This document shows, piece after piece, positions 12,314 to 55,679 of a stretch of DNA of 64,000 nucleotides. Source of the stretch: Calditrichia bacterium. Lineage in GTDB: Bacteria; Calditrichota; Calditrichia; RBG-13-44-9; J075. The position numbers were made by a program, and so were the translations under genes. Each line of letters opens with the position of its first letter. Position 1 is the first letter of the stretch. The DNA is taken from the NCBI GenBank assembly GCA_050633245.1, contig JBOEGD010000001.1:160001-224000 (forward strand), written 5' to 3'. The notes below the pieces were generated by a model. That model saw only the letters and a program-made list of their open reading frames with translations, made no database searches and was not told where the DNA came from.

Positions 12314-12329
12314 AGCAATAGGCGTGCCA
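12314..12329 (-). promoter_or_regulatory. sigma54 (-24/-12) promoter for the G8 protein gene
   Basis: Minus strand reads TGGCACG-CCTA-TTGCT, a full match to TGGCACG-N4-TTGC. Confidence 0.8.
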
Positions 12330-12680
12330 TTATTTAATGGAATTCTTGTTGAGAGCGGTATAGAGCGGAATGCGTCTTATATATAGCACAACTTTATTTT
12401 TAAAATGTGACTGACTACATGGTTCTGTGGTTATTTTTTGCACAGATTTGGTTCAAATCGCTAAATAAGCACGAAAATACGCAGAAAAGCTTATTCAATA
12501 TGTTAGGGAAGCCTGTAAAGAGGGCGCTGAAAATTCCGATACTTACTACGTGCAAGGCATCACATTGAAATTTCAAATATTCGAAAAATTTGAGCCCTTT
12601 GGGAGCATTTCTATCATACGTACTCTACACTTGTCAACTGATCAAACACACCATATATCGATTGTAAAGGAATAATTCCT

Positions 12681-13775
12681 ATGAAGAGGATTATCAATGT
12701 TGTTGGGGCAAGACCCAATTTTATGAAAATAGGACCAATTCAACGCGAGATGGCAAAGTATCCAAATGAGATTGAGCCGCTCTTGTTACATACCGGTCAA
12801 CATTATGATGAAAAGATGAGTAAACTGTTCTTCGTAGATCTTGAGCTTCCGCAGCCGGATATCTATTTAGGTGTCGGTTCTGGCTCTCATGCCCAGCAAA
12901 CAGCCAAGATTATGACGGACTTTGAAAAAGTCTGCCTCGAACATAAACCAGATATGGTGCTTGTTGTTGGTGATGTAAACTCTACTGTTGCCTGCAGCCT
13001 CGTTGCTTCGAAACTGCACATACCGGTTATTCATGTTGAAGCCGGGTTGCGCAGTAATGATCGCAAAATGCCGGAAGAGCTGAATCGGTTGGTAACGGAT
13101 GTCTTGTCCGACCACCTCTTTATTACCGAGAAAAGCGGTATCGAGAATTTGAAGAACGAAGGTATTGATGATTCCAAGGTTCACTTTGTAGGCAACGTGA
13201 TGATCGATTCGCTCGCTTATAATGCGAAGAAAGCAGATGAGTCTAAAATCTTGGATCAACTTGAGCTGGAAAGCGGCAACTATGTACTGGTAACGCTGCA
13301 CCGACCCTCAAATGTTGATGACCCGGAAAACTTTATGAAAATCATTCGTGCATTTGAAGAGGTGCCGAAAGATTTACAGATCGTTTTCCCGATGCACCCA
13401 CGCACTGCGAATAATATTAAGAAGTTCGGTTTGGAAGAGCGCGTTGCTGCTCTAACCAACCTCAAGCAACTGCCTCCTATCGGCTATTTAGATTTCATGC
13501 AGCTTACGCGTAACAGTAAGTTTGTTATGACTGACTCTGGCGGTATTCAGGAAGAAACCACCTATCTCGGTATTCCCTGTATTACGCTGCGCGAAAATAC
13601 CGAACGACCGATCACCGCAGAAGTGGGAACGAATGAGATTGTCGGAACGGATATGGATCTGATTCTGAACTGTCTGGAACGCGTTCTTAGCGGTAACTGG
13701 AAAAAGGGAGAGATTCCCGAGCTGTGGGATGGCAAGGCTGCCGAGCGCATTGTTTCGGTTTTGCGTAAACTGTAA
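12681..13775 (+). CDS. wecB: UDP-N-acetylglucosamine 2-epimerase, non-hydrolysing (WecB/WbpI family)
   Basis: GARPNFMK, HTGQHYD, GDVNST, HVEAGLRS, MPEELNR, TLHRPSNVD, TDSGGIQEE, RENTERP. Confidence 0.95.
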   Translation: MKRIINVVGARPNFMKIGPIQREMAKYPNEIEPLLLHTGQHYDEKMSKLFFVDLELPQPDIYLGVGSGSHAQQTAKIMTDFEKVCLEHKPDMVLVVGDVNSTVACSLVASKLHIPVIHVEAGLRSNDRKMPEELNRLVTDVLSDHLFITEKSGIENLKNEGIDDSKVHFVGNVMIDSLAYNAKKADESKILDQLELESGNYVLVTLHRPSNVDDPENFMKIIRAFEEVPKDLQIVFPMHPRTANNIKKFGLEERVAALTNLKQLPPIGYLDFMQLTRNSKFVMTDSGGIQEETTYLGIPCITLRENTERPITAEVGTNEIVGTDMDLILNCLERVLSGNWKKGEIPELWDGKAAERIVSVLRKL

Positions 13776-13802
13776 TCATAGAAACGTCATTGGGACCGTA
13801 TC

Positions 13803-16163
13803 ATGGATGTATTAAAATACGCATCAAAACTTAGTAAAATGAGCTCGCATGAGATTTCCTTCCGTATTAAACAGAAGGCTCGAAATACTGTGGAAACCTT
13901 ACGCTGGAAGCGACAGGGCAGGCAGGATATGTTTGTTCCATCGCATATTTCGCAGTGGGATACCGCGTCTCATGTCTTTCCTGCCGCCGACCTGAAGTTC
14001 TTTGGTTTTGAAAAAGGCGCAAAAGCGCTTCAGGCAGGATATGAAGGCCATTTCAGTAAGCGCAAAGAAGAAACGATCAAGGCCGCTGATAAGCTAATGA
14101 AGCAGCAGTTTCGCCTGTTGGGACTCGACGTTACTTTGCAGGATACCATTCAATGGAATCAGAATCCACAAACCGGTACTAACTATCCGATGCAGCATCA
14201 TGTTATGATGGATACGTTTAATACAGAAAAATACGGTGACGTGAAGTTTGTCTGGGAGCTAAATCGTCATCAATTCTTTATCGAACTGGCGAAGAGTTAT
14301 TTTGTTAGCGGTAACGAAAAGTATGCTGAAAAGCTGTGGAGCTGGCTGGAAAGCTGGTTCGAGCAAAACCCGCATAAGATCGGCATCAATCATACCTCGG
14401 TGCTGGAACATTCAGTGCGCATTTATGCGTGGATCTGGAGCTATTACTTTACCGCCGAATCTCCCATTTGGACAAAAGAACGCAAGGCTACTCTGGCACG
14501 TAACCTGCTTCTTCAAGGCGAGATGATTGAAGAGAACCTGTCTTTCTATTATAGTCCCTACAATCATTTAATTGGGGAGCTTGCGGCTCTTTCTTTTTTG
14601 GGCACGGTTTACAGTAATTCCGAACGTATGATAGCATGGCGGGATGACTACTGGCTTGAGATGGAACGTCAGCTCGATATGCAGTACTCGAAAGATGGAT
14701 TCACGGTTGAACAAGCAACGTATTATCATCACTTTACAACCGGGTTTTATCTGCAGCTGGCCCTGTTACGACGTCAAAACGGACTGCCGGTTTCAGACAG
14801 AGCATGGAAACATATCGAGCAGGCACTGGATTTCCCAATGCGTTTTACCAGACCCGATGGCCAGCTTCCAATGCTCGGAGATATTGACAGTGCTCGCTCA
14901 ATTTATTTCTATCAGCCGCAGCCAATGTGGGATTTAAGACCGTTTCAGGCGCTCGGTGCAGTTGTTTTTAAGCGCAACGACATGCGGTTTGTCGCTGCCG
15001 AACCGGCGGAAGAACTGCTTTGGTTGCTGGGAACAGATGGCCTGGAAGAATTTAATACGCTCACTCCGGAAGCTCCCGAAGCTGTTTCCGAGGCGTTACC
15101 GGAAAGCGGTTATTATATGATGCGAGATGGCTGGGATGGCAAAAGTAATTATTGCTGTTTCGATTGTGGAGACATTGCACACGGTGTTTTTAAGGATGAA
15201 ACGCCATCTGCTGCTCATGGACATGGAGACATTCTATCTTTTGAGCTGACGGTTAATGGCAGTCCCTTAATAATCGACCCCGGATTTTATACTTATTTCG
15301 GGCCCTTGGAATGGCACCGTTACTTTCGCTCCACGCGTGGTCACAATAGTATTGAAATAAATGGTGCTGGTCAGGCGGTTCACGAAGGTCGAATTGGCTG
15401 GTCGCATGTTTCTTCGCCGACCCTCCTGCATTGGGCCTCGGGAAAAACAATGGACTTTGCTGCCGGTGAAATTGATCGTTTCGCGAAGCTGAATCAACCG
15501 GTTCGCCAACAGCGATATATGATCTTTCGCAAAGATGCCTATCTGTTAGTGGTCGATCGTCTGGTTGGTAGTGCAACGGGCAAGCTGGAAATCGAGTCTT
15601 CATTCCACTTTCCGCCGGGAGAATTGCGTGAGTCTGACGGACGTCTGTTTTACAATGATGCCCTCTGTGCCGCGGTGCAGAGCGCAGCGAAAACGAATGT
15701 ACAGATTTCCTGCGGCGGAGAGAATCCGGATGAAGGTTGGATGGCTGAAGGATATGGCTGTAAAACTGCCGCTCCGGTGCTGAGAATCACAGCGACGGAA
15801 GCTGCGCCGACCTATCTTGCGATGGCTTTTCCTCTGCAGGCTGTTAAGCCTGAAGCCTTTTCTATAGAAAGCAGAGAAGAGGATGGTATGCAAATTCTTG
15901 ATATCGCAATTAATGGATTAAAGGAGCGTATCTACTTGAATTCCGCCCGCAAACGAGTAAGCATAGGTGATGATTTTGAAACGGATGCCCTGTGTGTTGT
16001 TGCCAGCTCGAATCCTCAAGAAAAAGAAATGCAGTTAATTAAGTTGCGTCACCTGAAGCGCGGTGGTGAGGTTTTAGATTTAAAGATTCCCGATCAATCA
16101 TCGGGCGATCTAAATATCCATCTCAATTATTCTGGTAAACCGGAAGTGGCGGTTTGGAAATAA
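13803..16163 (+). CDS. Heparinase II/III-family protein (EPS/capsule-locus type)
   Basis: DVKFVWELNRHQ, YNHLIGE, EQATYYH, AHGHGDILSF, DPGFYTY, FRSTRGHN. Confidence 0.9.
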   Translation: MDVLKYASKLSKMSSHEISFRIKQKARNTVETLRWKRQGRQDMFVPSHISQWDTASHVFPAADLKFFGFEKGAKALQAGYEGHFSKRKEETIKAADKLMKQQFRLLGLDVTLQDTIQWNQNPQTGTNYPMQHHVMMDTFNTEKYGDVKFVWELNRHQFFIELAKSYFVSGNEKYAEKLWSWLESWFEQNPHKIGINHTSVLEHSVRIYAWIWSYYFTAESPIWTKERKATLARNLLLQGEMIEENLSFYYSPYNHLIGELAALSFLGTVYSNSERMIAWRDDYWLEMERQLDMQYSKDGFTVEQATYYHHFTTGFYLQLALLRRQNGLPVSDRAWKHIEQALDFPMRFTRPDGQLPMLGDIDSARSIYFYQPQPMWDLRPFQALGAVVFKRNDMRFVAAEPAEELLWLLGTDGLEEFNTLTPEAPEAVSEALPESGYYMMRDGWDGKSNYCCFDCGDIAHGVFKDETPSAAHGHGDILSFELTVNGSPLIIDPGFYTYFGPLEWHRYFRSTRGHNSIEINGAGQAVHEGRIGWSHVSSPTLLHWASGKTMDFAAGEIDRFAKLNQPVRQQRYMIFRKDAYLLVVDRLVGSATGKLEIESSFHFPPGELRESDGRLFYNDALCAAVQSAAKTNVQISCGGENPDEGWMAEGYGCKTAAPVLRITATEAAPTYLAMAFPLQAVKPEAFSIESREEDGMQILDIAINGLKERIYLNSARKRVSIGDDFETDALCVVASSNPQEKEMQLIKLRHLKRGGEVLDLKIPDQSSGDLNIHLNYSGKPEVAVWK

Positions 16164-16494
16164 ATAGCGAACGCATACAGGCTGCTGACACAGCGTTCCG
16201 CTAATCCCTTTGCCGGAAAGATTAATACCCATAGCACAACGTGACTGACACGGCGCCTGGGTTCGATACGAATACGGAAATTTTCTTCACTCGGAATCGA
16301 AACCTTACGATGATAAAGAACTTAGAGGCTGTGCGGGTTTTTCAGAGAACGAAAGCGTTGAGAAATCGATGCCCTTCGCTCTCTCTGAATACATAGCGAC
16401 CCGAGCGGGTTTCTCTCGCGGTATGCAGCTTAATCTTTTCTATGAGCAATAGTATCCGAATCGCAACGTTCCATAACGATTTTACGGAAGTAAC

Positions 16495-17589
16495 ATGGCA
16501 ACAAAGCAAATGAGTCGAAACGGAAGCCACAAAAAAATTCTTGAAATCAGTTCTTATCCACCGCCGCGTGCCGGTTGGGGAGTGCGTGTCTCATTCGTCA
16601 AAGACGCACTTATCGAAGGTGGACATGCCTGTGAGGTTATTAATATCGCGCCGGAAAGCCGAATGATTCCCAGCCCGGAGTATTTGACCTCTATGAATGG
16701 GTTGGATTACTGCATGAAGGTGCTGAAAAAGAGCCTGGCAGGATATCGCGTGCACATGCACCTTAACGGAAATTCTCCGAAGGGCTTTGTGCTGACCATT
16801 CTGGCAGGTACGATTAACCTCCTCACGTTTAAACGACCGATATTGACGGTGCATGCCGGGCCCTATCAGATTTATTTCCCCCGTGAGCGCGCCAAACATC
16901 TTGTTCCAATGTTTAAGTATATTTTTGGAACTGCGCGCAAAATTATCTGTAACAGCGATGCGGTAAAAGAGAAAATTGTGGAATACGGTATCAGCCCGGA
17001 TAAAATTGTGCCCATTCAGGCATTTAGCGTGCAGTATCTGCAATATGAGAAGCCCGAGCTAAAGCCGGATCTGCAGCAGTTTATCGATAAACACGACGTG
17101 CTGATAAGTTCGTATGTGTTTTTTCGACCGGAGTTCTTTATTGATAGCATGGTAAAGGCGATCGCAGAGCTGAAAAAGGTCTATCCCAAAATTGGACTCA
17201 TGATCCTTGGCTCGCACGACAACTCCGAAGATATACGCAAGCTGGTGACGGAGCTCGGTATTGATGACAATGTCTACTTTGCCGGAGATCTGGATCATGA
17301 TACATTCCTGACGCTGGTTGCAACAGCTCAAATCTTTCTGCGCACGCCGATACGCGACGGTATCTGTTCGTCAGTGCTGGAAGCACTGGCACTTGGTGTG
17401 CCTGTCGTTGCGTCTGAAAACGACCGCCGACCAGAAAGTGTAATTACATATAATCATGAAGAAGTTTCAGATATGGTGCGCGCAGTGCGTGAAACAATAG
17501 ATAATCTGGAAGAAGCAAAACAGCGCATTGTAAAACCGGTTATTCAGGATACGGTTGCCGATGAAGTCGCTGTATTGGTGGAGGCATAA
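16495..17589 (+). CDS. GT4 glycosyltransferase
   Basis: YPPPRAGWG at the N-terminus; DGICSSVLEALALGVPVVAS at the C-terminus. Confidence 0.85.
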   Translation: MATKQMSRNGSHKKILEISSYPPPRAGWGVRVSFVKDALIEGGHACEVINIAPESRMIPSPEYLTSMNGLDYCMKVLKKSLAGYRVHMHLNGNSPKGFVLTILAGTINLLTFKRPILTVHAGPYQIYFPRERAKHLVPMFKYIFGTARKIICNSDAVKEKIVEYGISPDKIVPIQAFSVQYLQYEKPELKPDLQQFIDKHDVLISSYVFFRPEFFIDSMVKAIAELKKVYPKIGLMILGSHDNSEDIRKLVTELGIDDNVYFAGDLDHDTFLTLVATAQIFLRTPIRDGICSSVLEALALGVPVVASENDRRPESVITYNHEEVSDMVRAVRETIDNLEEAKQRIVKPVIQDTVADEVAVLVEA

Positions 17590-18816
17590 ATGTCAAAAAA
17601 TGGTAAGCTAAAAGTATTATTCCTTTCGCAGCGCTTTTTATTCCCAATGGACACTGGCGGTAAGATCCGTACCGGGAAAATTCTTGAGCAGCTGAAAGAT
17701 TTGGTGTCGTTAACGGTGATCAGCAATGTAGAGTCACCCAAAGACGATAAGTATCTGGACGATATGAAAGCGCTTTGTGATCAATTTATTCCAGTTCCAT
17801 GGAAGGAAATGGAGCGATATAACATGAAGTTTTATATGAAAATCGCAGCCCAATCGTTTTCAAAATATCCCATTTCGGTTTTGAATGATTATTCGAAGTC
17901 GTTGGAAGAAGCGGTTATCAAGGAACTGAAGAACGAGACTTATGATCTCGCAATATGCGATTTCCTGCAGTCTACTCTGAACTTCCAGCATGTGCAGAAC
18001 ATTCAAACGCTCCTATTTCAGCACAATGTTGAAGCAACTATTACGCTGCGGCATCTCGAGAAGGCGAAAGATCCTGTCTCGAAAGTGTTTTGGTCGCTAC
18101 AGCATAAGAGAATGATGCGTCATGAAAAAGAAATGTGTAACAAATTTGATGGAACCATTGCCGTGTCCGGAAAAGATCGCGAACGCATGGAAGAATGGTT
18201 CGGCGCAAATAGCGTATATGATATTCCTACCGGAGTAGATACTGATTATTATCAGCCCTCGCCGGAGGTTGAGGAGAAGAAACAGCTTGTGTTTACCGGT
18301 TCAATGGACTGGCTGCCTAACGAAGACGCAATGATTTACTTTGTTGATAAGATTTTCCCGCTTATCAAGAAGGAAGAGCCAGATACCAAGCTGGTGATTG
18401 TAGGACGGCGTCCAACGCCTTCGCTGTTGAAGCTGACTGAAGGTCGAGAGGATATAGAAACCACCGGCTGGGTAGATGATACGCGTCCATACATTGCTGA
18501 AAGCGCAGTGTTTATTGTGCCAATTCGTATTGGTGGCGGAACACGTATGAAGATCTACGAAGCACTTGCAATGGGCAAAGCGATGGTCTCTACCGCGGTA
18601 GGAGCAGAGGGACTGCCTTTGGAACATGGTGAACAGATTATGTTCGCCGACGAAGAACAGAACTTTGCCGATCGCACTGTTGAGCTGCTGCGCAGTGCTG
18701 AACTTCGCAAAAAGCTGGGCGAAACTGCAAGAGAATATGTATATACCAACTTTCGCTGGGGTAAAGTTGCAGAAGTCTTCACGGACATCTGTAATACGGT
18801 AGCGCAAAAGAAGTAG
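17590..18816 (+). CDS. GT4 glycosyltransferase
   Basis: P.DTGGKIR, HNVE, FTGSMDWLPN, GGGTRMKIYEALAMG, GAEGL; abuts the upstream gene. Confidence 0.92.
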   Translation: MSKNGKLKVLFLSQRFLFPMDTGGKIRTGKILEQLKDLVSLTVISNVESPKDDKYLDDMKALCDQFIPVPWKEMERYNMKFYMKIAAQSFSKYPISVLNDYSKSLEEAVIKELKNETYDLAICDFLQSTLNFQHVQNIQTLLFQHNVEATITLRHLEKAKDPVSKVFWSLQHKRMMRHEKEMCNKFDGTIAVSGKDRERMEEWFGANSVYDIPTGVDTDYYQPSPEVEEKKQLVFTGSMDWLPNEDAMIYFVDKIFPLIKKEEPDTKLVIVGRRPTPSLLKLTEGREDIETTGWVDDTRPYIAESAVFIVPIRIGGGTRMKIYEALAMGKAMVSTAVGAEGLPLEHGEQIMFADEEQNFADRTVELLRSAELRKKLGETAREYVYTNFRWGKVAEVFTDICNTVAQKK

Positions 18817-18872
18817 GAACGCGCTGTTTAGCGTTCTGTTTGTATCAGCGCGATGTTTGCACAAGATGATTG

Positions 18873-18907
18873 TAAGAAATAAGAAATAAGAAATCATAAA
18901 TCATAAC
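18873..18907. repeat. Heptamer tandem repeat
   Basis: TAAGAAA x3 followed by TCATAAA TCATAAC. Confidence 0.7.
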
Positions 18908-18937
18908 TATTTAAATCTCATCTCGGAGGGTAATGCC

Positions 18938-20251
18938 TTGAGAATAGCTGTTTTTGGACTAGGATATGTTGGCTGTATTTCAGCCGCAAGTTTTGCAAAA
19001 GAAGGTAATCAGGTAATTGGAGTAGACGTTTCACCAGACAAGGTTGATATTATTAATGCCGGAAAATCACCGATTGTAGAGCCGGGATTAGAAGAAGGTA
19101 TTGCATCCGCTGTGGCAAATGGTTCGCTAAGAGCCGTCAGCTCCTGCGAAGAAGCCATTGCCAATAGCGATATTTCGCTGGTTTGTGTAGGTACACCAAG
19201 TGCACGCAACGGCAGCGTTAAACTGGATTATATCTATCGTGTAGCTGAGCAAATCGGTGATGCGCTGAAAAAAGTTGACCACTACCATGTATTCGTTATT
19301 CGAAGCACCGTTCTACCCGGAACGCACGAGCGATGTGTAAAGATTATTGCCGAACAGTCAGGCAAGAAGCCTGGTGAAGGCTTTGGCGTTTGCTCCAACC
19401 CGGAGTTTTTGCGTGAAGGAACTGCACTAAAAGATTTCTACTCTCCGCCGTATACCGTAATCGGTGAAATGGATAAACGCAGTGGTGACTATTTGGCTGA
19501 AATTTACAAGCCGCTTGATGCGCCCCTTATTCGCACTGAGGTAAAAGTAGCAGAGACCGTAAAGTATGCGAATAATGTTTGGCATGCAGTCAAGGTAGCC
19601 TTTGGTAACGAAATGGGTACGCTCTGTAAGCGTGAGGGCATTGACAGCCATAAACTGATGGAAATCTTCTGTATGGATACCAAGTTGAATCTGTCTCCGT
19701 ACTATCTGAAGCCGGGATTTGCTTTTGGTGGCTCCTGCTTGCCGAAAGACGTGCGCGCCATTACCTATCGTGCAAAGGACCGCGACCTGGATCTGCCGAT
19801 GTTAAATGCTGTGATGAAGAGCAATGAAGTTCATGTTGAGCGCTCCGCTCAGCTGGTAATGGATCAGGGCAAGAAAAAGATTGGTATTCTTGGACTTAGC
19901 TTCAAAGCCAATACCGATGACCTGCGTGAAAGCCCGATGGTTGATGTTGTTGAGACGCTTATTGGTAAAGGTTACGACATCAAAATCTACGACCGCAATG
20001 TGCAGCTGGCAAAATTGTTCGGTGCCAACAAAGAATATATCAACGACAAGATCCCGCATATCTCGGGTCTGATGGTTGAAAGCATCGAGGAAGTGCTGTC
20101 GCACGCCGAAGTTGTAGTAATCGGCAACAATAGTAAAGAATTCGACGAGAAGCTGGAAAGCCATAGTGGCGAGTATAAAATTGTCGACTTTGTGCGCATG
20201 GCTCAGGATACCGAGAAGTATCCGAGTGATTACGAAGGCCTGTGCTGGTAA
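18938..20251 (+). CDS. algD: Nucleotide-sugar 6-dehydrogenase, GDP-mannose dehydrogenase (AlgD)-like
   Basis: FGLGYVG, GKSPIVEPGL, NPEFLREG, PGFAFGGSCLPKD, DDLRESP, C-terminal EGLCW closely resembling the Pseudomonas AlgD end. TTG start after GGAGG. Substrate not proven. Confidence 0.8.
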   Translation: MRIAVFGLGYVGCISAASFAKEGNQVIGVDVSPDKVDIINAGKSPIVEPGLEEGIASAVANGSLRAVSSCEEAIANSDISLVCVGTPSARNGSVKLDYIYRVAEQIGDALKKVDHYHVFVIRSTVLPGTHERCVKIIAEQSGKKPGEGFGVCSNPEFLREGTALKDFYSPPYTVIGEMDKRSGDYLAEIYKPLDAPLIRTEVKVAETVKYANNVWHAVKVAFGNEMGTLCKREGIDSHKLMEIFCMDTKLNLSPYYLKPGFAFGGSCLPKDVRAITYRAKDRDLDLPMLNAVMKSNEVHVERSAQLVMDQGKKKIGILGLSFKANTDDLRESPMVDVVETLIGKGYDIKIYDRNVQLAKLFGANKEYINDKIPHISGLMVESIEEVLSHAEVVVIGNNSKEFDEKLESHSGEYKIVDFVRMAQDTEKYPSDYEGLCW

Positions 20252-20269
20252 CTAATAGTTCGAAGTTCA

Positions 20270-20310
20270 TCGTTCAAAGTTCGGGATCTTAAGTCTTGAA
20301 CTTTGAACGA
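20270..20310. repeat. Hairpin built from heptamer units
   Basis: TCGTTCAAAGTTC...GAACTTTGAACGA, 13-bp perfect stem directly after the dehydrogenase. Confidence 0.75.
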
Positions 20311-20358
20311 GCATATAACCGGAACATGCGTATTAAAACACGTTTTTCACGCAGTTTT

Positions 20359-20393
20359 TCAGAACTCAGAACTCAGAACTCAGAACTCAGAAC
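20359..20393. repeat. Perfect heptamer tandem repeat (TCAGAAC)5
   Basis: Read directly; ends 22 nt before the GT2 start. Confidence 0.95.
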
Positions 20394-20415
20394 TTATACC
20401 CTGGACTAACCTATC

Positions 20416-21594
20416 GTGGAAATTTACATTTATATATTCTGGATCAGCGTTTTTTTATTGATCTACCCCTATCTGATTTACCCGCCATTGTTAATGCTCT
20501 ATACCCGTATTTTCGGTGGTAAAGTAGCGGTAGCCGAAGACCCGAAAGAATGGCCGGCCGTTTCCTTTATCATCTCTGCTTACAATGAAGAAGCGGTAAT
20601 TCAGGAAAAGATTGAAAATACGCTGAGCCTCGACTATCCGAAAGGCAAACTGGATATTGTGGTCATCTCCGACGCAAGCAGCGATCGCACCGACGATATC
20701 GTTCGGGAAATGTCTGACAAGCACGGTAACATAAAGCTGGTGCGTCAGGAAGAGCGTAAGGGGAAGTCGGCAGGCCTCAATCATGGAATTAAAGAGACAA
20801 CCGGCGACGTTATCGTTTTCTCCGACGCGAATGCGATGTTTAACAACGATGCGATTAAAGAACTGACGCGTTATTTCAGTACTCCGGATATTGGATATGT
20901 TATAGGTGCTGCCCTGTATAACGAGAACAAGGACAGCGAAGCAACCGAAAGCGAAGGACTCTACTGGAAGTTTGAACTGTTTGTGAAGGAACTGGAATCG
21001 AAATTTTATTCTGTCGTTGGCGGCGACGGAGCTATTTATGCAACCCGCAAAGGGTTGTTCTGGGATTTAAAGGATGACGATATTAATGACTTTGTGAACC
21101 CGTTACAGATCGTATCCAAAGGCTATCGTGGAATCATTAATCCGAAAGCTATTTGCTATGAAGACGCCGCAGAAAACTTCGATAAGGAATTCGGCCGCAA
21201 GCGTCGCATTGTAAATCGCTCATGGCGTGCGGTAACCCGCTATATCAGTTGGTTTAGCCCGCTTCAGCATGCAAAATTTTTGTTCGAGTTGTTCTCTCAC
21301 AAAGTTATTCGCTGGTTTAGCTTGATGATTATGACGGTCTGTTTGTTAAGCAATATTGCCATCTTGCTGTTACACCCAACACCTCTGTATGTGGTTACGC
21401 TGCTTGGCCAGATTGCATTTATAATCGCAGCTTTGCTGGGAGCAAATCTTGACGCACGGAACAAGCCGATGCCCAAGCTGCTCTATTTACCCTACTACTT
21501 CTGCTTCGTTAATTTGGCCGGTCTGCTGGGAATTATTGACCAATTTCGTGGAATTCGGCATGCAACCTGGGAACATGTGAGAGAAACACAATAG
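20416..21594 (+). CDS. GT2 glycosyltransferase with N- and C-terminal membrane helices
   Basis: SAYNEE, DASSDRT, GKSAGLN, FSDAN, GLYWKFE, GGDGAIYA, RKRRI, SHKVIRW. Confidence 0.92.
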   Translation: MEIYIYIFWISVFLLIYPYLIYPPLLMLYTRIFGGKVAVAEDPKEWPAVSFIISAYNEEAVIQEKIENTLSLDYPKGKLDIVVISDASSDRTDDIVREMSDKHGNIKLVRQEERKGKSAGLNHGIKETTGDVIVFSDANAMFNNDAIKELTRYFSTPDIGYVIGAALYNENKDSEATESEGLYWKFELFVKELESKFYSVVGGDGAIYATRKGLFWDLKDDDINDFVNPLQIVSKGYRGIINPKAICYEDAAENFDKEFGRKRRIVNRSWRAVTRYISWFSPLQHAKFLFELFSHKVIRWFSLMIMTVCLLSNIAILLLHPTPLYVVTLLGQIAFIIAALLGANLDARNKPMPKLLYLPYYFCFVNLAGLLGIIDQFRGIRHATWEHVRETQ

Positions 21595-21627
21595 CCATAG
21601 CCGGCACAACGTGGAGATATAACAACT

Positions 21628-23502: not shown

Positions 23503-23509
23503 CAGGGCC

Positions 23510-23538
23510 GTAGATGTCGCGATGTTTCGTGTCTCTAC
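23510..23538. repeat. GTAG-type REP-like imperfect palindrome
   Basis: GTAGATGTCGCGATGTTTCGTGTCTCTAC; a related element lies at 57143-57170. Confidence 0.5.
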
Positions 23539-23540
23539 TG

Positions 23541-45140: not shown

Positions 45141-45250
45141 GATGTTTGATGAGGTTTACACGCTTTCCCGGGATGGATAGCAGGTGATGTAAAGAGGAAA
45201 TAGAGAAAGCAATAAGTCTGTTTTATGCAGACTCTTATGGAAGGAAAGAA

Positions 45251-46513: not shown

Positions 46514-46558
46514 AAAGCTTATCCAAGAGCGCTAAATGAACAACAGGCTGATGCAAAT

Positions 46559-47431
46559 ATGAAGTATACCTTAATTACTCCGGCTCGCAATGAAGAGGCC
46601 TATTTGGAAAAAACGATTCAGACCGTTATTGCACAAACAATCCTGCCGCAGCGCTGGGTAATTGTCAGCGATGGCTCGACGGATCGGACAGATGAAATAG
46701 CCGGTAAATACGCAGCAGAATACGATTTCATTCAGTTGATTGCCAATGATGCAGATGCCGAGCGCAATTTTGGCTCGAAATCGAAAGCTATCGAGTATGG
46801 CTATAAACAACTTTCCGGAATCGATTACGATTACATCGGAAATCTTGATGCCGATGTCGCCTTTGCCCCAAATTATTACGAGCAAATTCTGACGAAATTT
46901 GAAGAAAATCCGAAACTTGGAGTAGCGGGAGGCATTCGATATGATCTGGTCTCGGGTGAAACGTTTGAAAAAGTAATGTGCGCTAAAAATAGTGTCGGTG
47001 GACCATTTCAACTTTTTCGACGGGAATGTTATGAAAAAATCGGCGGTTACTTGCCATTAAAATACGGTGGTGTCGATGCCGTTGCCGAAACGATGGCCAG
47101 GATGCATGGCTGGCAAGTTCAGTCATTTGATGAGTATCGTGTTAACCATTTTCGTCGCACCGGAACTGCCGGGCGCGGCATTATCCACGCGCGATTTCGC
47201 GCCGGAATTAAAGACTACCTGATCGGTTATCATCCCCTTTTTCAACTGCTTCGAGGAACATATCATATGCTGGGCAGCCCGTTTCTAATCGGTGGAGCTG
47301 CATTTCTAAGCGGCTACTTTTGGGCAGCATTGCGTCGCTTAAAACGTCCGGTTTCTGATGAGTTTGTCAGCTACCTGCGTACCGAGCAAATGGCGCGGCT
47401 ACGTGGCAAGAATGCGGCTTTTCGCTTATAG
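46559..47431 (+). CDS. GT2 glycosyltransferase
   Basis: ITPARNE, VSDGSTDRT, NLDAD, FRRECY..IGG, GYHP. Confidence 0.92.
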   Translation: MKYTLITPARNEEAYLEKTIQTVIAQTILPQRWVIVSDGSTDRTDEIAGKYAAEYDFIQLIANDADAERNFGSKSKAIEYGYKQLSGIDYDYIGNLDADVAFAPNYYEQILTKFEENPKLGVAGGIRYDLVSGETFEKVMCAKNSVGGPFQLFRRECYEKIGGYLPLKYGGVDAVAETMARMHGWQVQSFDEYRVNHFRRTGTAGRGIIHARFRAGIKDYLIGYHPLFQLLRGTYHMLGSPFLIGGAAFLSGYFWAALRRLKRPVSDEFVSYLRTEQMARLRGKNAAFRL

Positions 47432-47462
47432 CACTATAAATTAGCATTAATTAGCAGGGAAT

Positions 47463-48926
47463 ATGGATAAAGGGTTTGTAAAATCTTTCTTGAAAGGCTC
47501 CGCCGCCGCTTCTATCGGGCAATTTGCGTCGATTGCCTTTCACTTCCTCAGCATAATGGTGCTTACCAGGAAGATGCCAAAAGAAGAATTTGGTATTTAT
47601 TTACTCATCCTTGTTGTAGTACATCTCCTGAAAATTCTTAGCGGGCTCGGTCTGGATCTGACGCTCGTAAAGTTTATTGCCTCTCGCAAAGAGCATACGA
47701 AGTCTGGTGTACTGGGCACAGTTTTGACGCTTCGTGCGATGCTTCTTGTTCTCTTCGGAGCATTGGTTTATGGGGTTGGGCATTTGCTGACCCCGATGCT
47801 GGATGTGCGGATTAATGACTATCTGATTTATATTCCAATTATTGTCTTTTTTGCCAGCTTTCGGGAATTATTCTTCTTTTTATTTCAGGGGTTAAAGCAA
47901 TTTAAGCATTACGCAATTGTACAGGTGCTGTCTGCACTATTCAAGTTTGGATTGATTTTCTGGGCGTATTGGGTGAATGCTTTATCAGTAAGCAATCTTC
48001 TGATGATCGAAATTATCGCATTTGCCATTTCGCTCGTAGTGCAAATTGCATTGACGCCAATGAAGGAACTTGGCGGCTATTCGTTTAAAATGGAAAGTGT
48101 GCGTGAACTACTGCAATTCGGCTTGCCGTTATATGCGAATAACGTTCTAACCTTCCTGTATGGTCGAGTGAATGTGTTTATGATTGGTGCATTTCTTAAT
48201 CCGGCAAGCATTGCTTCATTTGAAGTCGCGGGAAATATCCCGGGTGGATTTGCTCGAATCTTCAAGTCTTTTATCGTTGTGTATTTTCCCAACCTCGCTA
48301 CGCTTTTTGCTGAGGGAAAAACACGCGATGCAGAGAAGGTTATGAATAAGTCGTTGGTTATTTGTGCGACAGCAGTAGCGTTTCTGACAATGGGCGCGTT
48401 TGCATTTCGCGAGGAAATTATGACGCTAATCTTCTCAGAGAATTATCGGGAAGCCGCACTGGCCTTCGCTTTGTTAATGCTGAGCTTTTTACTTTATGCA
48501 CAGGCATCGATTATGGGCTATTCTTTAGTGTCCGCCGGTTATTCCGGCGTTCCCGTAAAAGCCAATATAATTTCCAGCCTGCTTAACCTGGCATTGAGCA
48601 TTGTTCTAATTCCAAAGTATGGCTATATAGGCGCGGTATATTCGGTGATTGCCATGAACGCTGTTTCGCAGATTGTTTACCTCTACTTTTTAAGGAAAAA
48701 CAATATTAAGGCCGACATTATAAATTACGTGAAGCCGCTTGTATTAGCGGTCGGATTACTGGTGCCGTTTATGATGGCAGGTGAACTTCATATTCTACTT
48801 CGCGCTTTGCTGCCTGTCTGTTATGCCGTAGCTGCTGGTCTTTTACTGCCCGATATTCGCAGTCTTCTTATGATGCTACTAAAACGCGGTAACAAGAGCG
48901 ATATGTCTACGGAGTCGGCGTCATGA
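47463..48926 (+). CDS. wzx: Oligosaccharide flippase
   Basis: About 12-14 hydrophobic segments; EFGIY, L...G.P, LIPKYG.IGA. Confidence 0.88.
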   Translation: MDKGFVKSFLKGSAAASIGQFASIAFHFLSIMVLTRKMPKEEFGIYLLILVVVHLLKILSGLGLDLTLVKFIASRKEHTKSGVLGTVLTLRAMLLVLFGALVYGVGHLLTPMLDVRINDYLIYIPIIVFFASFRELFFFLFQGLKQFKHYAIVQVLSALFKFGLIFWAYWVNALSVSNLLMIEIIAFAISLVVQIALTPMKELGGYSFKMESVRELLQFGLPLYANNVLTFLYGRVNVFMIGAFLNPASIASFEVAGNIPGGFARIFKSFIVVYFPNLATLFAEGKTRDAEKVMNKSLVICATAVAFLTMGAFAFREEIMTLIFSENYREAALAFALLMLSFLLYAQASIMGYSLVSAGYSGVPVKANIISSLLNLALSIVLIPKYGYIGAVYSVIAMNAVSQIVYLYFLRKNNIKADIINYVKPLVLAVGLLVPFMMAGELHILLRALLPVCYAVAAGLLLPDIRSLLMMLLKRGNKSDMSTESAS

Positions 48927-50047
48927 AGATTATTATGGTAGACAGCCTGGTGGATAACGATTATGCGATCTGTCTTTGCGATGCGCTTCAGCAAAGTGGT
49001 GCGGATGTAAGTTTAGTGGTTACCGAAAATCGTCGCGTGCCGGAGAACGTATCGTTCGATTTGCAGTTTATGGCACCATCAAAAGCACAGGGCATTAGCA
49101 AGATAAGCAAGCTCTGGAAATATTTTCGCTATCTGTATCGCCTGCGTAAATTTGCAAAATCGAGCAATGCTGCTGCCATACACTTTCAGTTCTTTCGACG
49201 TGAAAGACTCGATACCTTCTACTTTGTATTACTACGATTGCTGGGCTACAATGTCATTCATACTGCACATAATGTGTTGCCGCATGAGCGCAGCCGTATC
49301 GACTTCTATCTGAAATATCTGGTCTATCTTTCTGCCCGGCAAATTGTTGTGCACTCCGGCTATATTCGGGATAAGTTGCTGGCATCATTCCGGGTTACAC
49401 CGGGGAAGGTGCACATCATTCCGCACGGGAATTTTGATATGTATGTGCCCGAAGAAGAACTTACTGTTGCAGAGGCGCGGTCGAAGATCAATCTTCCGGA
49501 ATCGGCAGCTGTCGTGCTATGTTTTGGTCATATCCGCGAATACAAAGGCATTGACATCCTGATTCAGGCTTTCGATTTAGCAGCACAGGAGGAAAAAGAC
49601 CTGCATCTTATTATTGCCGGAAGTGCCCGGACGCAGGAACTGAAGGAGCGCTACTGCGTGCAGATTGATGCGATTTCTGCGAGTGATCGAGTGCAATATG
49701 TACCGGACTTTATCCCCAATGAAGCGGTTGCCGAATATTTTACTGCGGCGGATATAATTGCTCTACCGTATCGCGCAATAGATCACAGTGGAATTGTACA
49801 TCTGGCGTACTCTTTTGGTAAGCCGATAATTGCTACACGGGTAGGAGATTTTAGTGAGGCCGTTGAAGAGGGCAAGAGTGGCTTTCTCGTTGAGAAAGAA
49901 GATGCGAAGGCTTTAGCAGAAGCATTAAGGTTGGTAGCAGGTAGCAAAGGCAAGCTGGTCGAAATGGGTGAGTATGCCCAAATGCTGAACAAAACAAAAT
50001 ATTCATGGCAGGATATTGCCCGCAAAACCAGAGCAATATATAAATAA
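48923..50047 (+). CDS. GT4 glycosyltransferase
   Basis: TAHNVLPHE, IPHG, FGHIREYKG, LPY....SG, FGKPII; ATGA overlap with wzx. Confidence 0.93.
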   Translation: MKIIMVDSLVDNDYAICLCDALQQSGADVSLVVTENRRVPENVSFDLQFMAPSKAQGISKISKLWKYFRYLYRLRKFAKSSNAAAIHFQFFRRERLDTFYFVLLRLLGYNVIHTAHNVLPHERSRIDFYLKYLVYLSARQIVVHSGYIRDKLLASFRVTPGKVHIIPHGNFDMYVPEEELTVAEARSKINLPESAAVVLCFGHIREYKGIDILIQAFDLAAQEEKDLHLIIAGSARTQELKERYCVQIDAISASDRVQYVPDFIPNEAVAEYFTAADIIALPYRAIDHSGIVHLAYSFGKPIIATRVGDFSEAVEEGKSGFLVEKEDAKALAEALRLVAGSKGKLVEMGEYAQMLNKTKYSWQDIARKTRAIYK

Positions 50048-50083
50048 GTTTTAGGGCGTACCAAGGTATTACGAGAATTAAGC

Positions 50084-51391
50084 ATGAAGACGATCCGACA
50101 CCAAGAGATAATGTTCGTTTATCAACAGCCAACTATTTATTCGCGTGTTGCTGAGTTTGCCTTTTATCTGATGGCAGCCGCCGTCCTTTTTGGAACGACT
50201 ATGCCGTTCCCGGAAACGGAAGGATTTAATGCAGAAAATACCTCGAATATAATGAATCAGATTGTATTCAGTTTCCTCCTTTTATCCGGAACCTTCTCAC
50301 TTATTCCGCTACGTATGGAAGCACTAGCCATTTTGCGTCGTGAGAAGCTGCTTATTATATTGCTGGCCTGGTGCACAATTTCGCTGATGTGGTCGATATA
50401 TCCATTTGTCGGCTTTAAGCGCTTGGTTCTGCTCTTGTCGGTAAGCGTAACTTCGCTTGCTGTATTACTACACTCGCGCAATAGGCCAAACCTACTTTCC
50501 CGCCTGAAATATGTTATTGGCATTTACATTCTGCTAACGATTGTGGTGTGCCTGGTTTTACCTGCTGCCAAAGATCCCAAATTTCATACCTGGCGTGGGT
50601 TTGAGCCGACAAAAAACAATCTGGGACAGGTTGCGCTTGTGTGCATTTTGCTGCTGTTTGTAACCTTTAAGTCTGAACAGGGAAAGCGTTACTTCTCTGG
50701 TGCTTTGCTAGCACTTACCGGAGTTGTATTAATAGGCAGCTGGAGCGTTACTTCAATAGGCGTATTGTTTGGTCTTCTGGGAATTGGTCTGCTGGTATGG
50801 GGAATAGATGTTGCGTTCAACTCTGCACCAATTGCACGGCTACTGAGTATTGTGGCGATTGCAGGCTTTGGTCTGCTGGCCTTGGGAGCGATGCTGTGGG
50901 CCCCGGAATTATTGACAACTATTCCGAAATCATTGGGAAAAGACATTACTTTTTCTGGTCGAACCTATCTATGGGAGTCGATGTGGTTAGAAATTGAACG
51001 CCATTGGATGTTGGGAACGGGTTATGCAGGATTTTGGAACCCGGAGAGTGTTGGGATGGAAGTGCTTCACGAAGAGTTTGTCTGGCTGCCTAACCAGGCA
51101 CACAACGGCTATCTGGATGTGTTGAATGAAATTGGTTTGGTCGGGCTATTTCTCTTTGCTGCGCTAATAATCCGCTACTTGCGAGATGCAGTGGAGCTTG
51201 GAGAAGGATTCTACTGGCAATGGTTTATTGTTGCAATGCTGGTAATGAACCTTCAGGAGAGCACTTTTTTACGTCCGCATAATGCTTTTAATGTTTTTTT
51301 CCTCTTTGCATACTTCTCGTTGTTTGTGGAGCAACATTTTCGCGAAGTGCGGCGTTTTGGTGCAGACGATCAGCTGATATCACCTAACTGA
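50084..51391 (+). CDS. wzy: O-antigen polymerase/ligase family (Wzy_C; ExoQ-like)
   Basis: WRG....KNNLG, T.SGRT.LW, G.GY..FW, AHNGYLD...E.G.VG; many TM helices. Confidence 0.85.
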   Translation: MKTIRHQEIMFVYQQPTIYSRVAEFAFYLMAAAVLFGTTMPFPETEGFNAENTSNIMNQIVFSFLLLSGTFSLIPLRMEALAILRREKLLIILLAWCTISLMWSIYPFVGFKRLVLLLSVSVTSLAVLLHSRNRPNLLSRLKYVIGIYILLTIVVCLVLPAAKDPKFHTWRGFEPTKNNLGQVALVCILLLFVTFKSEQGKRYFSGALLALTGVVLIGSWSVTSIGVLFGLLGIGLLVWGIDVAFNSAPIARLLSIVAIAGFGLLALGAMLWAPELLTTIPKSLGKDITFSGRTYLWESMWLEIERHWMLGTGYAGFWNPESVGMEVLHEEFVWLPNQAHNGYLDVLNEIGLVGLFLFAALIIRYLRDAVELGEGFYWQWFIVAMLVMNLQESTFLRPHNAFNVFFLFAYFSLFVEQHFREVRRFGADDQLISPN

Positions 51392-51398: not shown

Positions 51399-52742
51399 CT
51401 AGTGACCGCCCTGAATATGGAAATTACCGGGCGGTGAGGGCGCAGTTGTATCATTTAAAATAAATTCCAGTGCACCAGCGTCGAAGGCCCCATTGTGCGG
51501 TCGTAAGGTTCCGCTTACGTCACGTGCGCTGCCGATGCCGCTAACATTTGCTCCCATGTTCAGAGCGATAGAACTTTCTTTAAGACGAAAGTCGTATTGC
51601 TGGAGATTTAAAAAATGTGGATTACCGCTTTTCCCGCCAGTTTCCTGTCCTTGCGAAGATTGAAATTCAGAAAAGCTAAACTTCGGTCCGCCCCAATAAA
51701 TAATGTTGTCGACATTGGGGTAATACACATTGTTGTTTAACGTGTGCCCGGAGGTTGCTTCGGCATTCATAAACACTTCATATTGGCTGTTTTGTACCGT
51801 ATGTCCATAAATGATATTGTTCTTCAGAGTGAGGTGTGTTGCGCTGTTATTGCGAATGCCACTAAACCCATTGTTGACAATCGTATTGCTAACAATATAA
51901 CCATCAGCGCGATAAGTTGCCGGACCATTACCGTGACGGTGCAGAAAAATTCCGTTTTCCTGATTGTTGTAAATCAAATTACCCGAAATGTCATAGTCTT
52001 TCTGATAGCGAGTATAGATGCCACCGAGATTGTTATAAAGCGTGTTGTTACGGATGCGGTTTCCAATTTGCATAGATTGGGCATCAGCTGTATTAGGAAA
52101 AACATTTATTCCGAAGTGCAGTGGGTTATCATGCGAAATATTCTGCTCGATTAGAGTATAATTACTGTTCTCTGCATTAATGCCGTTCCAGCCGCAGTTG
52201 TAGACTTCGTTACCGCGAATGATATTGTAGTCACCCTGTCGAATCAAAATGCCTACACCCTTGGTTGTTGAACCGCAATTATAGATGATGCAGTTACGAA
52301 TAATATTATGATCGCCTTCAATCCAAAGAGCCCAGCGAGCCACATTGCGAACTGTGAATCCATCGAAAATGATATAATTCTTGTCGATCCCATTGGATGC
52401 TGAACCTTTCCAATCGACAAACTTATCTTGTGCCGAGCCGCTGCCATCAATAATAACGCTCTCACCGGGAAATGCCTGAATGACCAAATAGTTGTTTGGT
52501 TCACCAGACACGGACATTCGCAGGGGATTGGTATAAACCCCTTCCCGAATAAAAATAGTATCACCAGCCTGAACCTGATTCAGAGCATGTTGAATGCTAA
52601 ACCAGGGGTTCTCCTGAGTGCCGGTTGCACCATCTGATGCCTGAGCATTGTTTTTGTCTACAAAATAGGTCTCACCGCGCAGAGAAAAACTGCAGGCAAA
52701 GAACAGAAGCAGTGGCAACAGGATTAAGCGTTTTAATTCCAT
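51399..52742 (-). CDS. Secreted right-handed parallel beta-helix protein (pectate-lyase-like fold)
   Basis: Signal peptide (possible lipobox FFAC); Y.V.....ASD...GT...PW.SIQ.A....AGDT..IR.GVY; Asn-rich PbH1 repeats; C-terminal DFRL...S.A...G...D.GA.E. Confidence 0.82.
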   Translation of the reverse strand: MELKRLILLPLLLFFACSFSLRGETYFVDKNNAQASDGATGTQENPWFSIQHALNQVQAGDTIFIREGVYTNPLRMSVSGEPNNYLVIQAFPGESVIIDGSGSAQDKFVDWKGSASNGIDKNYIIFDGFTVRNVARWALWIEGDHNIIRNCIIYNCGSTTKGVGILIRQGDYNIIRGNEVYNCGWNGINAENSNYTLIEQNISHDNPLHFGINVFPNTADAQSMQIGNRIRNNTLYNNLGGIYTRYQKDYDISGNLIYNNQENGIFLHRHGNGPATYRADGYIVSNTIVNNGFSGIRNNSATHLTLKNNIIYGHTVQNSQYEVFMNAEATSGHTLNNNVYYPNVDNIIYWGGPKFSFSEFQSSQGQETGGKSGNPHFLNLQQYDFRLKESSIALNMGANVSGIGSARDVSGTLRPHNGAFDAGALEFILNDTTAPSPPGNFHIQGGH

Positions 52743-52885: not shown

Positions 52886-52901
52886 AGCAAAATTAATACC
52901 A
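52886..52901 (-). promoter_or_regulatory. Putative sigma54 promoter for the beta-helix gene
   Basis: Minus strand TGGTATT-AATT-TTGCT (GG-N10-GC), preceded by AAATAA exactly as at the G8 promoter. Confidence 0.6.
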
Positions 52902-53150
52902 TTATTTGAAGCTCGAAACGTCGACTCTTTAGCGCCCCTCCCGCTTGATAAACTGTAAAAAAGCTACACAAATTGAGGAGGAGTATAGAGTTAGAATACA
53001 GAATGGCAAGATGCCGCGCAAAAATCGAAAGTTGACTGTCATCAACGCATGGTAGAATTGATTAGCGTATTTTGATAAATTATGCTGGTTAGATAGCACA
53101 TGGGATGATCTGATCTTTCGAATGCGAATTTTGGTTAAGGACAGACTGGG

Positions 53151-54785: not shown

Positions 54786-54960
54786 CAGAACACAGAACAC
54801 AGATGAAAAGGATGAAGCACCTGTAGATGCTTCGCGTCTCAAGCCAGAAGTGAAAAGATTTCCCCGCCTTGTCTCCCATTCTCCTTGTCTCCTTTTCCCA
54901 GCAGCGAGCTTGCGAGCGCATCAGTATCGCTCCCTTTTTCCTTGTCTCCCCATCACCCGC

Positions 54961-55593
54961 TCATTTCTGCAGCACCGCCTTCTGCATCCTACGCTGACCT
55001 GCGCTAAGAAGCTGGTAGAAGTAAATACCGGTTGAGAGAGCATTACCATTATCATCCTTACCATCCCACTCTATAGAATAAGCGCCCTTTTCCATAAAAT
55101 CGTCTACCAATGTGCGGATCTTCATGCCAAGAGCATTGAAAATCAAGAGTTGCGTGCGACCCTTGGCAGGAATGGCATAGTCGATGGTGGTGGTTGGATT
55201 AAACGGATTAGGGTAGTTCTGAGCCAGGCGAAATTCGCCGGGTACAGGTGTATTCTCACCGGTCGAGGTAAGAATGCCGGAGGTGGCACTTAGTTCAGGG
55301 GTGGCAGCGCTTTCATTACCGGAGTAATCCACTGCGGTGAGTTTATAGAAATAGGTGCGGTTTTGCTCTACACCATGATCGCTAAATGAGGTGTTCGTGG
55401 CCTGCACGGTTGCATACGGCCTGTAGGTGCCGGACAAGGTATCGCGATAAATAACGTAATGTGAGATATCGGCTTCCGGACTGGCATCCCAGCTAAGCTC
55501 CAGCGGTTGCGCAGAAAGCTCCGGTAGCATAAAAGTCATAATTGCGCCTAAACAGACGCCTATTTTTTTAAGTAGCTTCACAGCTCGTTTCAT
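54961..55593 (-). CDS. Small secreted protein: one Fn3-like domain plus a T9SS-type/FlgD-Ig C-terminal domain
   Basis: Signal peptide; LSW....E.DI..Y.IYR...YFYKLTAVD..GNES; QNYPNPFNPTT, WDGKD..G...STGIYFY. Confidence 0.85.
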   Translation of the reverse strand: MKRAVKLLKKIGVCLGAIMTFMLPELSAQPLELSWDASPEADISHYVIYRDTLSGTYRPYATVQATNTSFSDHGVEQNRTYFYKLTAVDYSGNESAATPELSATSGILTSTGENTPVPGEFRLAQNYPNPFNPTTTIDYAIPAKGRTQLLIFNALGMKIRTLVDDFMEKGAYSIEWDGKDDNGNALSTGIYFYQLLSAGQRRMQKAVLQK

Positions 55594-55663
55594 TAAGACC
55601 CACCGTTTGAGAATACCAAACTAAGCGAATTGAGTCCTCATCCATCCAGAATGCCTTAACAAA

Positions 55664-55679
55664 AGCAAATCAGATACCA
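55664..55679 (-). promoter_or_regulatory. Putative sigma54 promoter for the Fn3-CTD gene
   Basis: Minus strand TGGTATC-TGAT-TTGCT (GG-N10-GC), about 70 nt before the ATG. Confidence 0.62.

Follow-up and report, generated by a model that had tools for sequence, protein, structure and literature searches.

Predicted sigma-54 promoters of exported-protein genes beside an exopolysaccharide cluster in a Calditrichia bacterium

Four exported-protein genes and their upstream motifs

The window analysed here is a stretch of 64,000 nucleotides from the genome of a Calditrichia bacterium (contig JBOEGD010000001.1, positions 160,001 to 224,000). Within it, four genes for exported proteins flank a cluster for exopolysaccharide (EPS) biosynthesis, and each stands behind a motif of the sigma-54 (RpoN) promoter type. 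Gene identities in the window come from Pfam searches of its proteins.

At one flank lies a GH5 (cellulase-family) glycoside hydrolase (8085..9368, plus strand; PF00150, 1.8e-54) with a lipoprotein-type signal peptide (N-terminus MKVWLIYIFVSIALLIGCS...). Its predicted promoter, TGGTATGGCATTTGAA (8020..8035, plus strand), is 49 nt from the refined start at 8085, carries A at -12 and has the top score of the window with a position weight matrix (PWM; 21.3). Convergent with it is a minus-strand gene (9479..12262) whose product combines a G8 domain, a CEMIP-type beta-helix, Big_7 and FlgD_ig/CHU_C, the last being a C-terminal domain (CTD) of the type IX secretion system (T9SS) type. This CTD scores 40.3 against a cut-off of 27 with PF13860 and 22.2 against 23 with TIGR04183, thus 0.8 bits under. 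The likely true start of the G8 gene is the ATG at 12178 (MRD...), which is kept in orthologues, and the predicted promoter TGGCACGCCTATTGCT (12314..12329, minus strand, read from 12329 to 12314) lies 135 nt ahead of it.

At the other flank, a right-handed beta-helix protein (DUF1565/pectate-lyase-like; 51399..52742, minus strand) has a signal peptide (MELKRLILLPLLLFFAC...) and no CTD; its predicted promoter is TGGTATTAATTTTGCT (52886..52901, read from 52901 to 52886), 143 nt ahead of the start at 52742. Beyond it, a small exported protein of 210 aa from the ATG at 55593 (54961..55593, minus strand; signal peptide MKRAVKLLKKIGVCLGAIMTFMLPELSA) consists of an Ig/FN3-like domain and a T9SS type-A CTD, which matches FlgD_ig/CHU_C/Por_Secre_tail and passes TIGR04183 (27.9 against 23). 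The predicted promoter of this gene, TGGTATCTGATTTGCT (55664..55679, read from 55679 to 55664; PWM 19.3), is 70 nt from the start. All four genes are monocistronic, because they are convergent with their downstream neighbours, and each is preceded by 370-490 nt of non-coding DNA. Two of the four, the G8 and small-protein genes, encode a CTD; the GH5 and DUF1565 beta-helix genes do not.

An original prediction made from the sequence of the window had placed GG-N10-GC motifs 70-145 nt upstream of the three minus-strand genes, a variant at 8020-8035 ahead of the GH5 gene and a CTD on two of the three minus-strand proteins. The three motifs are where, and what, it said they were, and are exact matches to TGGYAY-N5-TTGCT. 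The GH5 site deviates with its A at -12 and belongs to the commonest -12 class of this genome. Pfam agrees on the two CTDs. An AAATAA seen directly 5' of the first two sites is also present, but is not a motif: positions -6 to -1 are merely A/T-rich across 63 sites of the genome.

The EPS cluster itself (12681..51391, plus strand, by Pfam) encodes UDP-GlcNAc 2-epimerase, a heparinase II/III-like protein, glycosyltransferases of the GT1, GT2 and GT4 types, UDP-sugar dehydrogenase, AsnB, a transglutaminase-like protein, deacetylases, carA/carB, Wza-like and Wzc-like proteins, a priming transferase, an aminotransferase, a nonribosomal peptide synthetase (NRPS) C-A-T-TE module, Wzx and Wzy.

Motif frequencies and the predicted -12 element

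The genome (G000; 6.35 Mb in 59 contigs, 97% complete) was called with a custom dicodon-score caller, which gave 4884 genes and 87% coding sequence and on which every intergenic count below depends. By total count the strict pattern TGGYAY-N5-TTGCW does not exceed background, with 30 occurrences on both strands of the 6.35 Mb against 31-46 at control spacings. Its position does: 17 of the 30 are intergenic, compared with 1-5 of the 31-46 at spacings 2-4 and 6-9, and three of these 17 are the minus-strand motifs of the window. The bare GG-N10-GC core is uninformative (41000 matches genome-wide); the signal is carried by the extended match, TGGYAY-N5-TTGHW.

If one mismatch is allowed while GG and GC stay fixed, no excess between genes is seen (51 intergenic of 376, compared with 35-57 for the control spacings), so looser scans of the GC type add only noise. 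Free iteration of a PWM was dropped as well, since it drifted to the AT-rich composition of intergenic DNA, and regular-expression classes with spacing controls were used instead. When mismatches are taken by position, the sole large signal falls on the C of the -12 element (56 intergenic at spacing 5, compared with 7-15 at controls). Among the 73 intergenic TGGYAY-N5-TTGNW sites, the -12 base is A in 29, T in 24, C in 17 and G in 3 (five control spacings give 0-10). G does not rise above the spacing controls, and these counts make TGGYAY-N5-TTGHW the working motif here. The 73 sites, G included, stand about 59 above control level, and 63 of them face a co-directional gene within 450 nt.

In other words, sigma-54 promoters of this genome have TTGH and not TTGC as their -12 element, and C is in the minority. 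The A and T forms are also found in loci of bacterial enhancer-binding proteins (bEBPs) of a genome from another family (G023). About three quarters of this lineage's sigma-54 promoters would escape a scanner that demands 'GC' at -12.

Sigma-54 machinery and predicted target genes

Profile searches of the genome recover a single-copy rpoN (one PF04552 match, 198 bits) and 33 strong bEBPs (PF00158, Sigma54_activat, 191-254 bits). Together with the spacing-specific intergenic excess, they bear out the original prediction that the motifs are sigma-54 promoters. A bEBP gene lies within 5 kb of 22 of the 73 intergenic sites, where simple arithmetic (33 x 10 kb = 330 kb of 6.35 Mb, about 5%) leads us to expect about 4, and the -12 base is not C in 20 of these 22. 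Across 30 bEBP loci, 105 kb in all, spacing 5 yields 16 sites, and spacings 3, 4, 6 and 7 yield 0-2.

A Pfam scan covered the 59 first downstream genes besides the four in the window. Among the targets are two flagellar rod genes, two bEBPs, two extracytoplasmic function (ECF) sigma factors, ExbB, a TonB-dependent receptor, OmpA-type and other outer-membrane proteins, ClpB and many exported proteins. They also include CTD proteins that bind or degrade glycans and carry CBM6, PA14 or Glyco_hydro_cc domains, a VWA-CTD gene and a beta-helix-CTD gene. Such a repertoire is typical of sigma-54. Of the 63 targets, 28 are flagged by a crude signal-peptide detector that picks up 174 of the genome's 262 CTD proteins, compared with 1389 of 4884 genes (p=0.005).

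The bacterial exterior has been described as being under sigma-54 control (Francke et al. 2011, PMC3162934), and a cross-phylum survey of sigma-54 regulons links COG0542 (ClpB-type) proteases to it in Bacteroidota (PMC12316311). As far as the main texts of these two papers go, our targets agree with theirs, in that sigma-54 promoters precede flagellar, envelope, transport and EPS-related genes and that ClpB-type proteases are targets in the Fibrobacteres-Chlorobi-Bacteroidetes (FCB) group. Our sites differ from the survey at -12: the consensus in its main text is TGGCAC-N5-7-TTGCT, whereas C is the minority base here, and the class-specific matrices in its supplements could bear on this claim. 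The ClpB gene of our genome (C1:398067) stands 61 nt behind TGGCACCCAATTTGAT, directly downstream of an NtrC-type bEBP (C1:396270-397598), an arrangement that fits the protease/chaperone theme in the main text of that survey.

Conservation of the predicted promoters in relatives

The G8/beta-helix protein has full-length orthologues (49-55% identity) at nine places in nine relatives from two families; two further paralogous G8 places were left out of this set. Upstream of all nine there is one sense-strand TGGYAY-N5-TTGNW, and no other such site in the ~5.6 kb examined. The -12 elements of these promoters read TTGTA in seven cases, TTGCT in one and TTGAA in one. Six further orthologues come from named genome records, all of them metagenome-assembled genomes (MAGs) of Calditrichia and candidate division KSB1, one being the same place as that in relative G008. 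TGGYAY-N5-TTGNN is upstream of all six, and stricter patterns match four.

G8/CEMIP beta-helix homologues are also widespread in Planctomycetota and Verrucomicrobiota (L141-L177), where they show 34-47% identity, end near residue 800 and have no CTD. The strict site precedes one of 33 Planctomycetota, Verrucomicrobiota and other homologues with upstream DNA (35 scanned). This difference, 9 of 9 and 6 of 6 as against 1 of 33, indicates that the G8 promoter is a conserved, lineage-specific trait of the gene and not a by-product of the sequence. The G8 gene appears to have gained both its CTD and its promoter in the KSB1/Calditrichia lineage.

For the GH5 gene, orthologues in two relatives of one genus (G012 and G008) have the strict site TGGTATAATTTTTGAA at -68/-69, and one from another genus (G003) has the near-consensus AGGCACATTTTTTGCG; a fourth homologue (45% identity) has no site upstream. 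The DUF1565 beta-helix protein has two homologues in 20 relatives, one with a loose TGGAACCACTTTTGTT and the other without a site. The single likely orthologue of the small CTD protein (G010) has TGGCACAATGGTTGCG about 315 nt ahead of its start.

Could one or two of the window sites, those of the beta-helix and small CTD genes, be chance matches, with the genes using another sigma factor? No conserved site can be demonstrated for either gene, and control spacings still yield 1-5 intergenic strict matches. Both sites are nevertheless sense-oriented, perfect matches 70-143 nt from a start, and the beta-helix promoter has a phased upstream repeat, described below. At 30 sites per 12.7 Mb of strand, moreover, three strict sites in three chosen 400-nt regions would be expected about 0.003 times. 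We regard chance as a very improbable explanation.

Candidate activator sites

When the 63 upstream regions were aligned by anchoring on the -24 element, two phased inverted repeats emerged, GGAAA-N4-TTTCC and TGTRNA-N5-TNYACA (TGT-N11-ACA). The second is found in 8 of the 63 regions compared with 18 of 2484 background regions, and 60 times in the whole genome. As a 17-mer at -68/-69 it precedes four promoters: that of the window beta-helix gene and those at C4:126779 (beta-helix and CTD), C12:80834 (small CTD protein) and C2:59706. The copy in the window, TGTGTAGCTTTTTTACA (52954..52970, minus strand, read from 52970 to 52954), starts 69 nt upstream of the -24 TGG and is a candidate bEBP site. 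A candidate activator site of the G8 promoter, CTGTG-N11-CACAG (12425..12445, minus strand), is 116 nt upstream of -24 and has a spacing 2 nt wider than the TGT-N11-ACA class. Sites of the TGT-N11-ACA type (for example TGTAAAATTTTTCTACA) occur some 100-125 nt upstream in six of the nine G8 orthologue promoters, although three of these six are from near-identical relatives. Neither the GH5 nor the small-CTD promoter has a convincing copy. The pattern resembles the NifA-type site, TGT-N10-ACA. We read it as a putative bEBP site that marks a sub-regulon including the window beta-helix gene, not as a signal common to the four genes.

The other repeat, as GGAAA-N4-TTTCC(CACT), stands at -115 to -118 in four promoters (C3:64622, C11:237946, C27:107358 and C41:41863), none of them in the window. 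These belong to a TonB-dependent receptor, an ECF sigma factor, a PD40/peptidase protein and a CTD protein. This repeat is found in 4 of the 63 sigma-54 regions, compared with 4 of 2484 in the background, and another bEBP probably binds there.

The four window promoters were also searched for an activator site in common, and none was found: pairwise anchored comparison gave only a borderline match of the GH5 promoter to that at C18:29805 (16/20) and the beta-helix group already described. Nor could an activator be assigned by proximity. No bEBP is encoded within 37 kb of the window promoters or within 27 kb of any TGT-N11-ACA promoter, and tblastn detects none in the flanks of the G8 orthologue loci.

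Sorted proteins among the predicted sigma-54 targets

With a CTD profile iterated from the two window CTDs, a C-terminal match of the FlgD_ig/Por_Secre_tail type was found in 262 proteins, 5.4% of the 4884. CTD genes make up 14 of the 63 sigma-54 targets compared with these 262 of 4884 (one-sided Fisher p=4e-6, odds ratio (OR) 5.3). The enrichment is independent of the -12 base (CTD share 5/25 for A, 5/15 for C and 4/21 for T) and persists when only genes preceded by 100 nt or more of intergenic DNA are counted (OR 3.7-4.3). On that background, a site with PWM>=16 precedes 14 of 193 CTD genes and 46 of 2572 others (OR 4.3), and one with PWM>=12 precedes 23 of 193 and 81 of 2572 (OR 4.2). A sigma-54 site is ahead of only 5-12% of CTD genes (14/262, or 23/193 at the looser score). 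T9SS-sorted proteins are about 4-5 times over-represented in the sigma-54 set, an enrichment that is real but modest in reach.

Of the T9SS itself, the genome encodes SprA (SprA_N, 148 bits), two copies of the sortase PorU ('T9SS sortase') over the cut-off, and PorV, also over its cut-off. GldM_1st and GldL gave no match, in searches that had no positive control, so that absence of these proteins is not shown. The organism, which also has flagellar rod genes, may export proteins by a T9SS-like route whose motor is divergent or missing.

Control of T9SS cargo in Bacteroidota is exemplified by PorXY/SigP in Porphyromonas. The proteins described here share with Bacteroidota cargo the Ig-like CTDs, export via SprA/PorV and processing by PorU. 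Unlike control by PorXY/SigP, their regulation is predicted to run via sigma-54 and bEBPs.

Comparison with exosortase systems

The original prediction saw at this locus the logic of PEP-CTERM systems without an exosortase, CTD-sorted proteins filling the role of PEP-CTERM proteins. Spelt out as a dedicated module, a single activator of the PrsR type would induce CTD-sorted matrix proteins together with this EPS, and the T9SS sortase PorU would take the place of exosortase. The likeness to the PEP-CTERM/exosortase system under PrsK-PrsR-sigma-54 is considerable, to the extent that the available text of Haft et al. (2006, PMC1569441) describes it. Both have exported proteins tagged for sorting at the C-terminus and genes that form operons of their own behind long intergenic stretches, both show sigma-54 promoters together with an upstream activator site (UAS), and both lie by an EPS cluster with AsnB and deacetylases. 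The breadth is not shared, as the same text counts 99 of 167 proteobacterial PEP-CTERM genes (59%) behind a UAS and sigma-54 motif, compared with the 5-12% of sorted genes here. Also unlike that system, a T9SS-type CTD serves as the tag and is missing from two of the four window genes, and the activator sites are not uniform but fall into at least two UAS classes.

Exosortase, foreseen as lacking, was indeed not found: EpsH (PF09721) has no match in the genome, in a search whose positive control matched in one genome. PEP-CTERM (PF07589) likewise has none, although this search had no working positive control. The expected PrsR-like activator did not materialise, the best score with the PrsR model (TIGR02915) being 449.3 against a cut-off of 502.6; for PrsK (TIGR02916) the best is 105.3 against 300.

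Several observations still speak for such a module. CTD genes are enriched among the targets and PorU, PorV and SprA are present; TGT-N11-ACA is common to the window beta-helix promoter and three CTD-gene promoters (C4:126779, C12:80834 and C34:32991), with a site of that type in six of nine G8 orthologues; and in a KSB1 MAG the G8 orthologue sits amid CTD genes by Wzx/Wzy. Weighed against the missing PrsR, PrsK, EpsH and PEP-CTERM, the lack of a motif common to the four promoters, an EPS operon without a site, and the clustering and linkage results that follow, they leave us thinking a dedicated module unlikely. What stands is that the arrangement is PEP-CTERM-like in promoter architecture and gene organisation, yet is no member of the PEP-CTERM system and is without its breadth.

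Relation to the exopolysaccharide cluster

On its own (plus) strand the EPS operon lacks a sigma-54 site, and the gap at 12263-12680 holds only the minus-strand G8 promoter. The four sites in 48 kb are the densest cluster of the genome. We rejected this clustering as evidence, as random placement of 63 sites among eligible genes gives at least four in 1969 of 5000 trials (39%). In relatives the G8 and GH5 orthologues are unlinked while their promoters are kept; in G008, for example, they lie at 4.06 Mb (G8) and 1.30 Mb (GH5).

Another reading is that the promoters are real but the GH5 and beta-helix enzymes forage on foreign polysaccharides, their place beside the EPS cluster being coincidental. 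A cluster of four is compatible with chance, no EPS gene lies within 1.5 kb of the GH5 orthologues or of eight of the nine G8 orthologues, and the other targets include the TonB-dependent receptor, ExbB and CTD proteins with CBM6, PA14 or Glyco_hydro_cc domains. The exception among the nine is G003, with an epimerase within 1.5 kb, which is as far as the G8 flanks were inspected. In the KSB1 MAG locus L136 the G8 orthologue has VWA-CTD and beta-helix-CTD genes around it and Wzx and Wzy at a distance of 1.8 kb, and at locus L135 a sulfotransferase and a deacetylase are nearby. With G8 adjoining polysaccharide-synthesis genes in three lineages, and given how short the inspected flanks are, we find this reading improbable. 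VWA-CTD and beta-helix-CTD genes are also among the sigma-54 targets of G000 itself, and it is plausible that the G8 protein is functionally tied to polysaccharide loci. A locus-level sigma-54 module around the EPS cluster is not shown.

Interpretation

We consider it probable that the four motifs are functional RpoN promoters, each driving one monocistronic exported-protein gene beside the Wzx/Wzy-type EPS cluster, within a set of about 60 promoters that is tied neither to the sorting signal nor to the EPS locus. So the general pattern, in which sigma-54 controls the cell exterior, is carried gene by gene, with no regulon tied to a sorting signal or to the EPS locus.

On established sigma-54 biology, RNA polymerase with sigma-54 would sit on the -24 TGGYAY and -12 TTGH elements as a closed complex. 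To fire, this complex would have to be remodelled by an enhancer-binding protein that hydrolyses ATP and is bound some 70-120 bp upstream. Transcription would then start about 12 nt downstream of the -12 base, at ~8046 for the GH5 gene, ~12303 for the G8 gene, ~52875 for the DUF1565 beta-helix gene and ~55653 for the small CTD gene. The expected outcome is tight on/off control, separate from that of the operon for EPS synthesis, where no such promoter is present. The activators would act in trans, none being encoded within 37 kb. They are probably more than one protein, because only the beta-helix promoter has TGT-N11-ACA at -69 and the G8 variant, at -116, is 2 nt wider.

Several points weigh against this interpretation. 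The promoter activity of the four sites is itself deduced from sequence, and the control spacings suggest that chance could account for roughly one in six of the strict intergenic matches. Homologues of the beta-helix and small-CTD genes are too few (two and one) for conservation to decide about their promoters. The gene calls and the CTD census both come from custom scripts. Finally, the G8 gene adjoins polysaccharide genes in G000, in G003 and in the KSB1 MAG (Wzx/Wzy), so that this gene may have a real functional tie to EPS.

A more far-reaching proposal is that in KSB1/Calditrichia a relaxed -12 TTGH (C in about one quarter), together with a trans-acting bEBP on TGT-N11-ACA, gates T9SS-sorted and other exported glycan-active proteins that accompany EPS loci. 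This would be a convergent counterpart of PrsK/PrsR-PEP-CTERM with PorU as its exosortase. We offer it tentatively, as a possibility that we judge less likely than not to hold in full.

KSB1/Calditrichia-type bacteria are uncultured or barely studied, and a reconstruction from sequence alone gives a testable regulon of about 60 promoters. In it, surface-sorted proteins and glycan-active enzymes would come under tight transcriptional control by activators. The prediction for the EPS locus is that proteins which process the matrix are turned on and off independently of the synthesis of the polymer. The general theme, sigma-54 gating of exterior and EPS-associated proteins, is known. What is soundly new is its predicted combination with T9SS-type in place of PEP-CTERM sorting and with an unusual -12 element, in an unstudied lineage. 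The literature searched holds no paper that joins sigma-54 with KSB1, Calditrichia or T9SS cargo. The main text of PMC12316311 makes no mention of type IX, exopolysaccharide or Calditrich, nor that of PMC3162934 of Bacteroidetes or Chlorobi.

Further features of the locus

Within the EPS cluster, a single NRPS module (C-A-T-TE, with a TubC-type docking domain) lies at 39977-44191 and carA/carB at 26747-31045. They may serve in aminoacyl or carbamoyl decoration of the polymer, or may be merely inserted housekeeping genes. Inside the AsnB coding sequence, TGGCAAAGGATTTGAA at 22497-22512 (plus strand) scores PWM 16.2, with A at -21, and has most likely arisen by chance. A fifth strong site, TGGCATATCAGTTGCT (C1:239553-239568, PWM 20.7), is found 15.5 kb past the end of the window, 66 nt ahead of a gene for a 190-aa protein that belongs to no Pfam or NCBIfam family.

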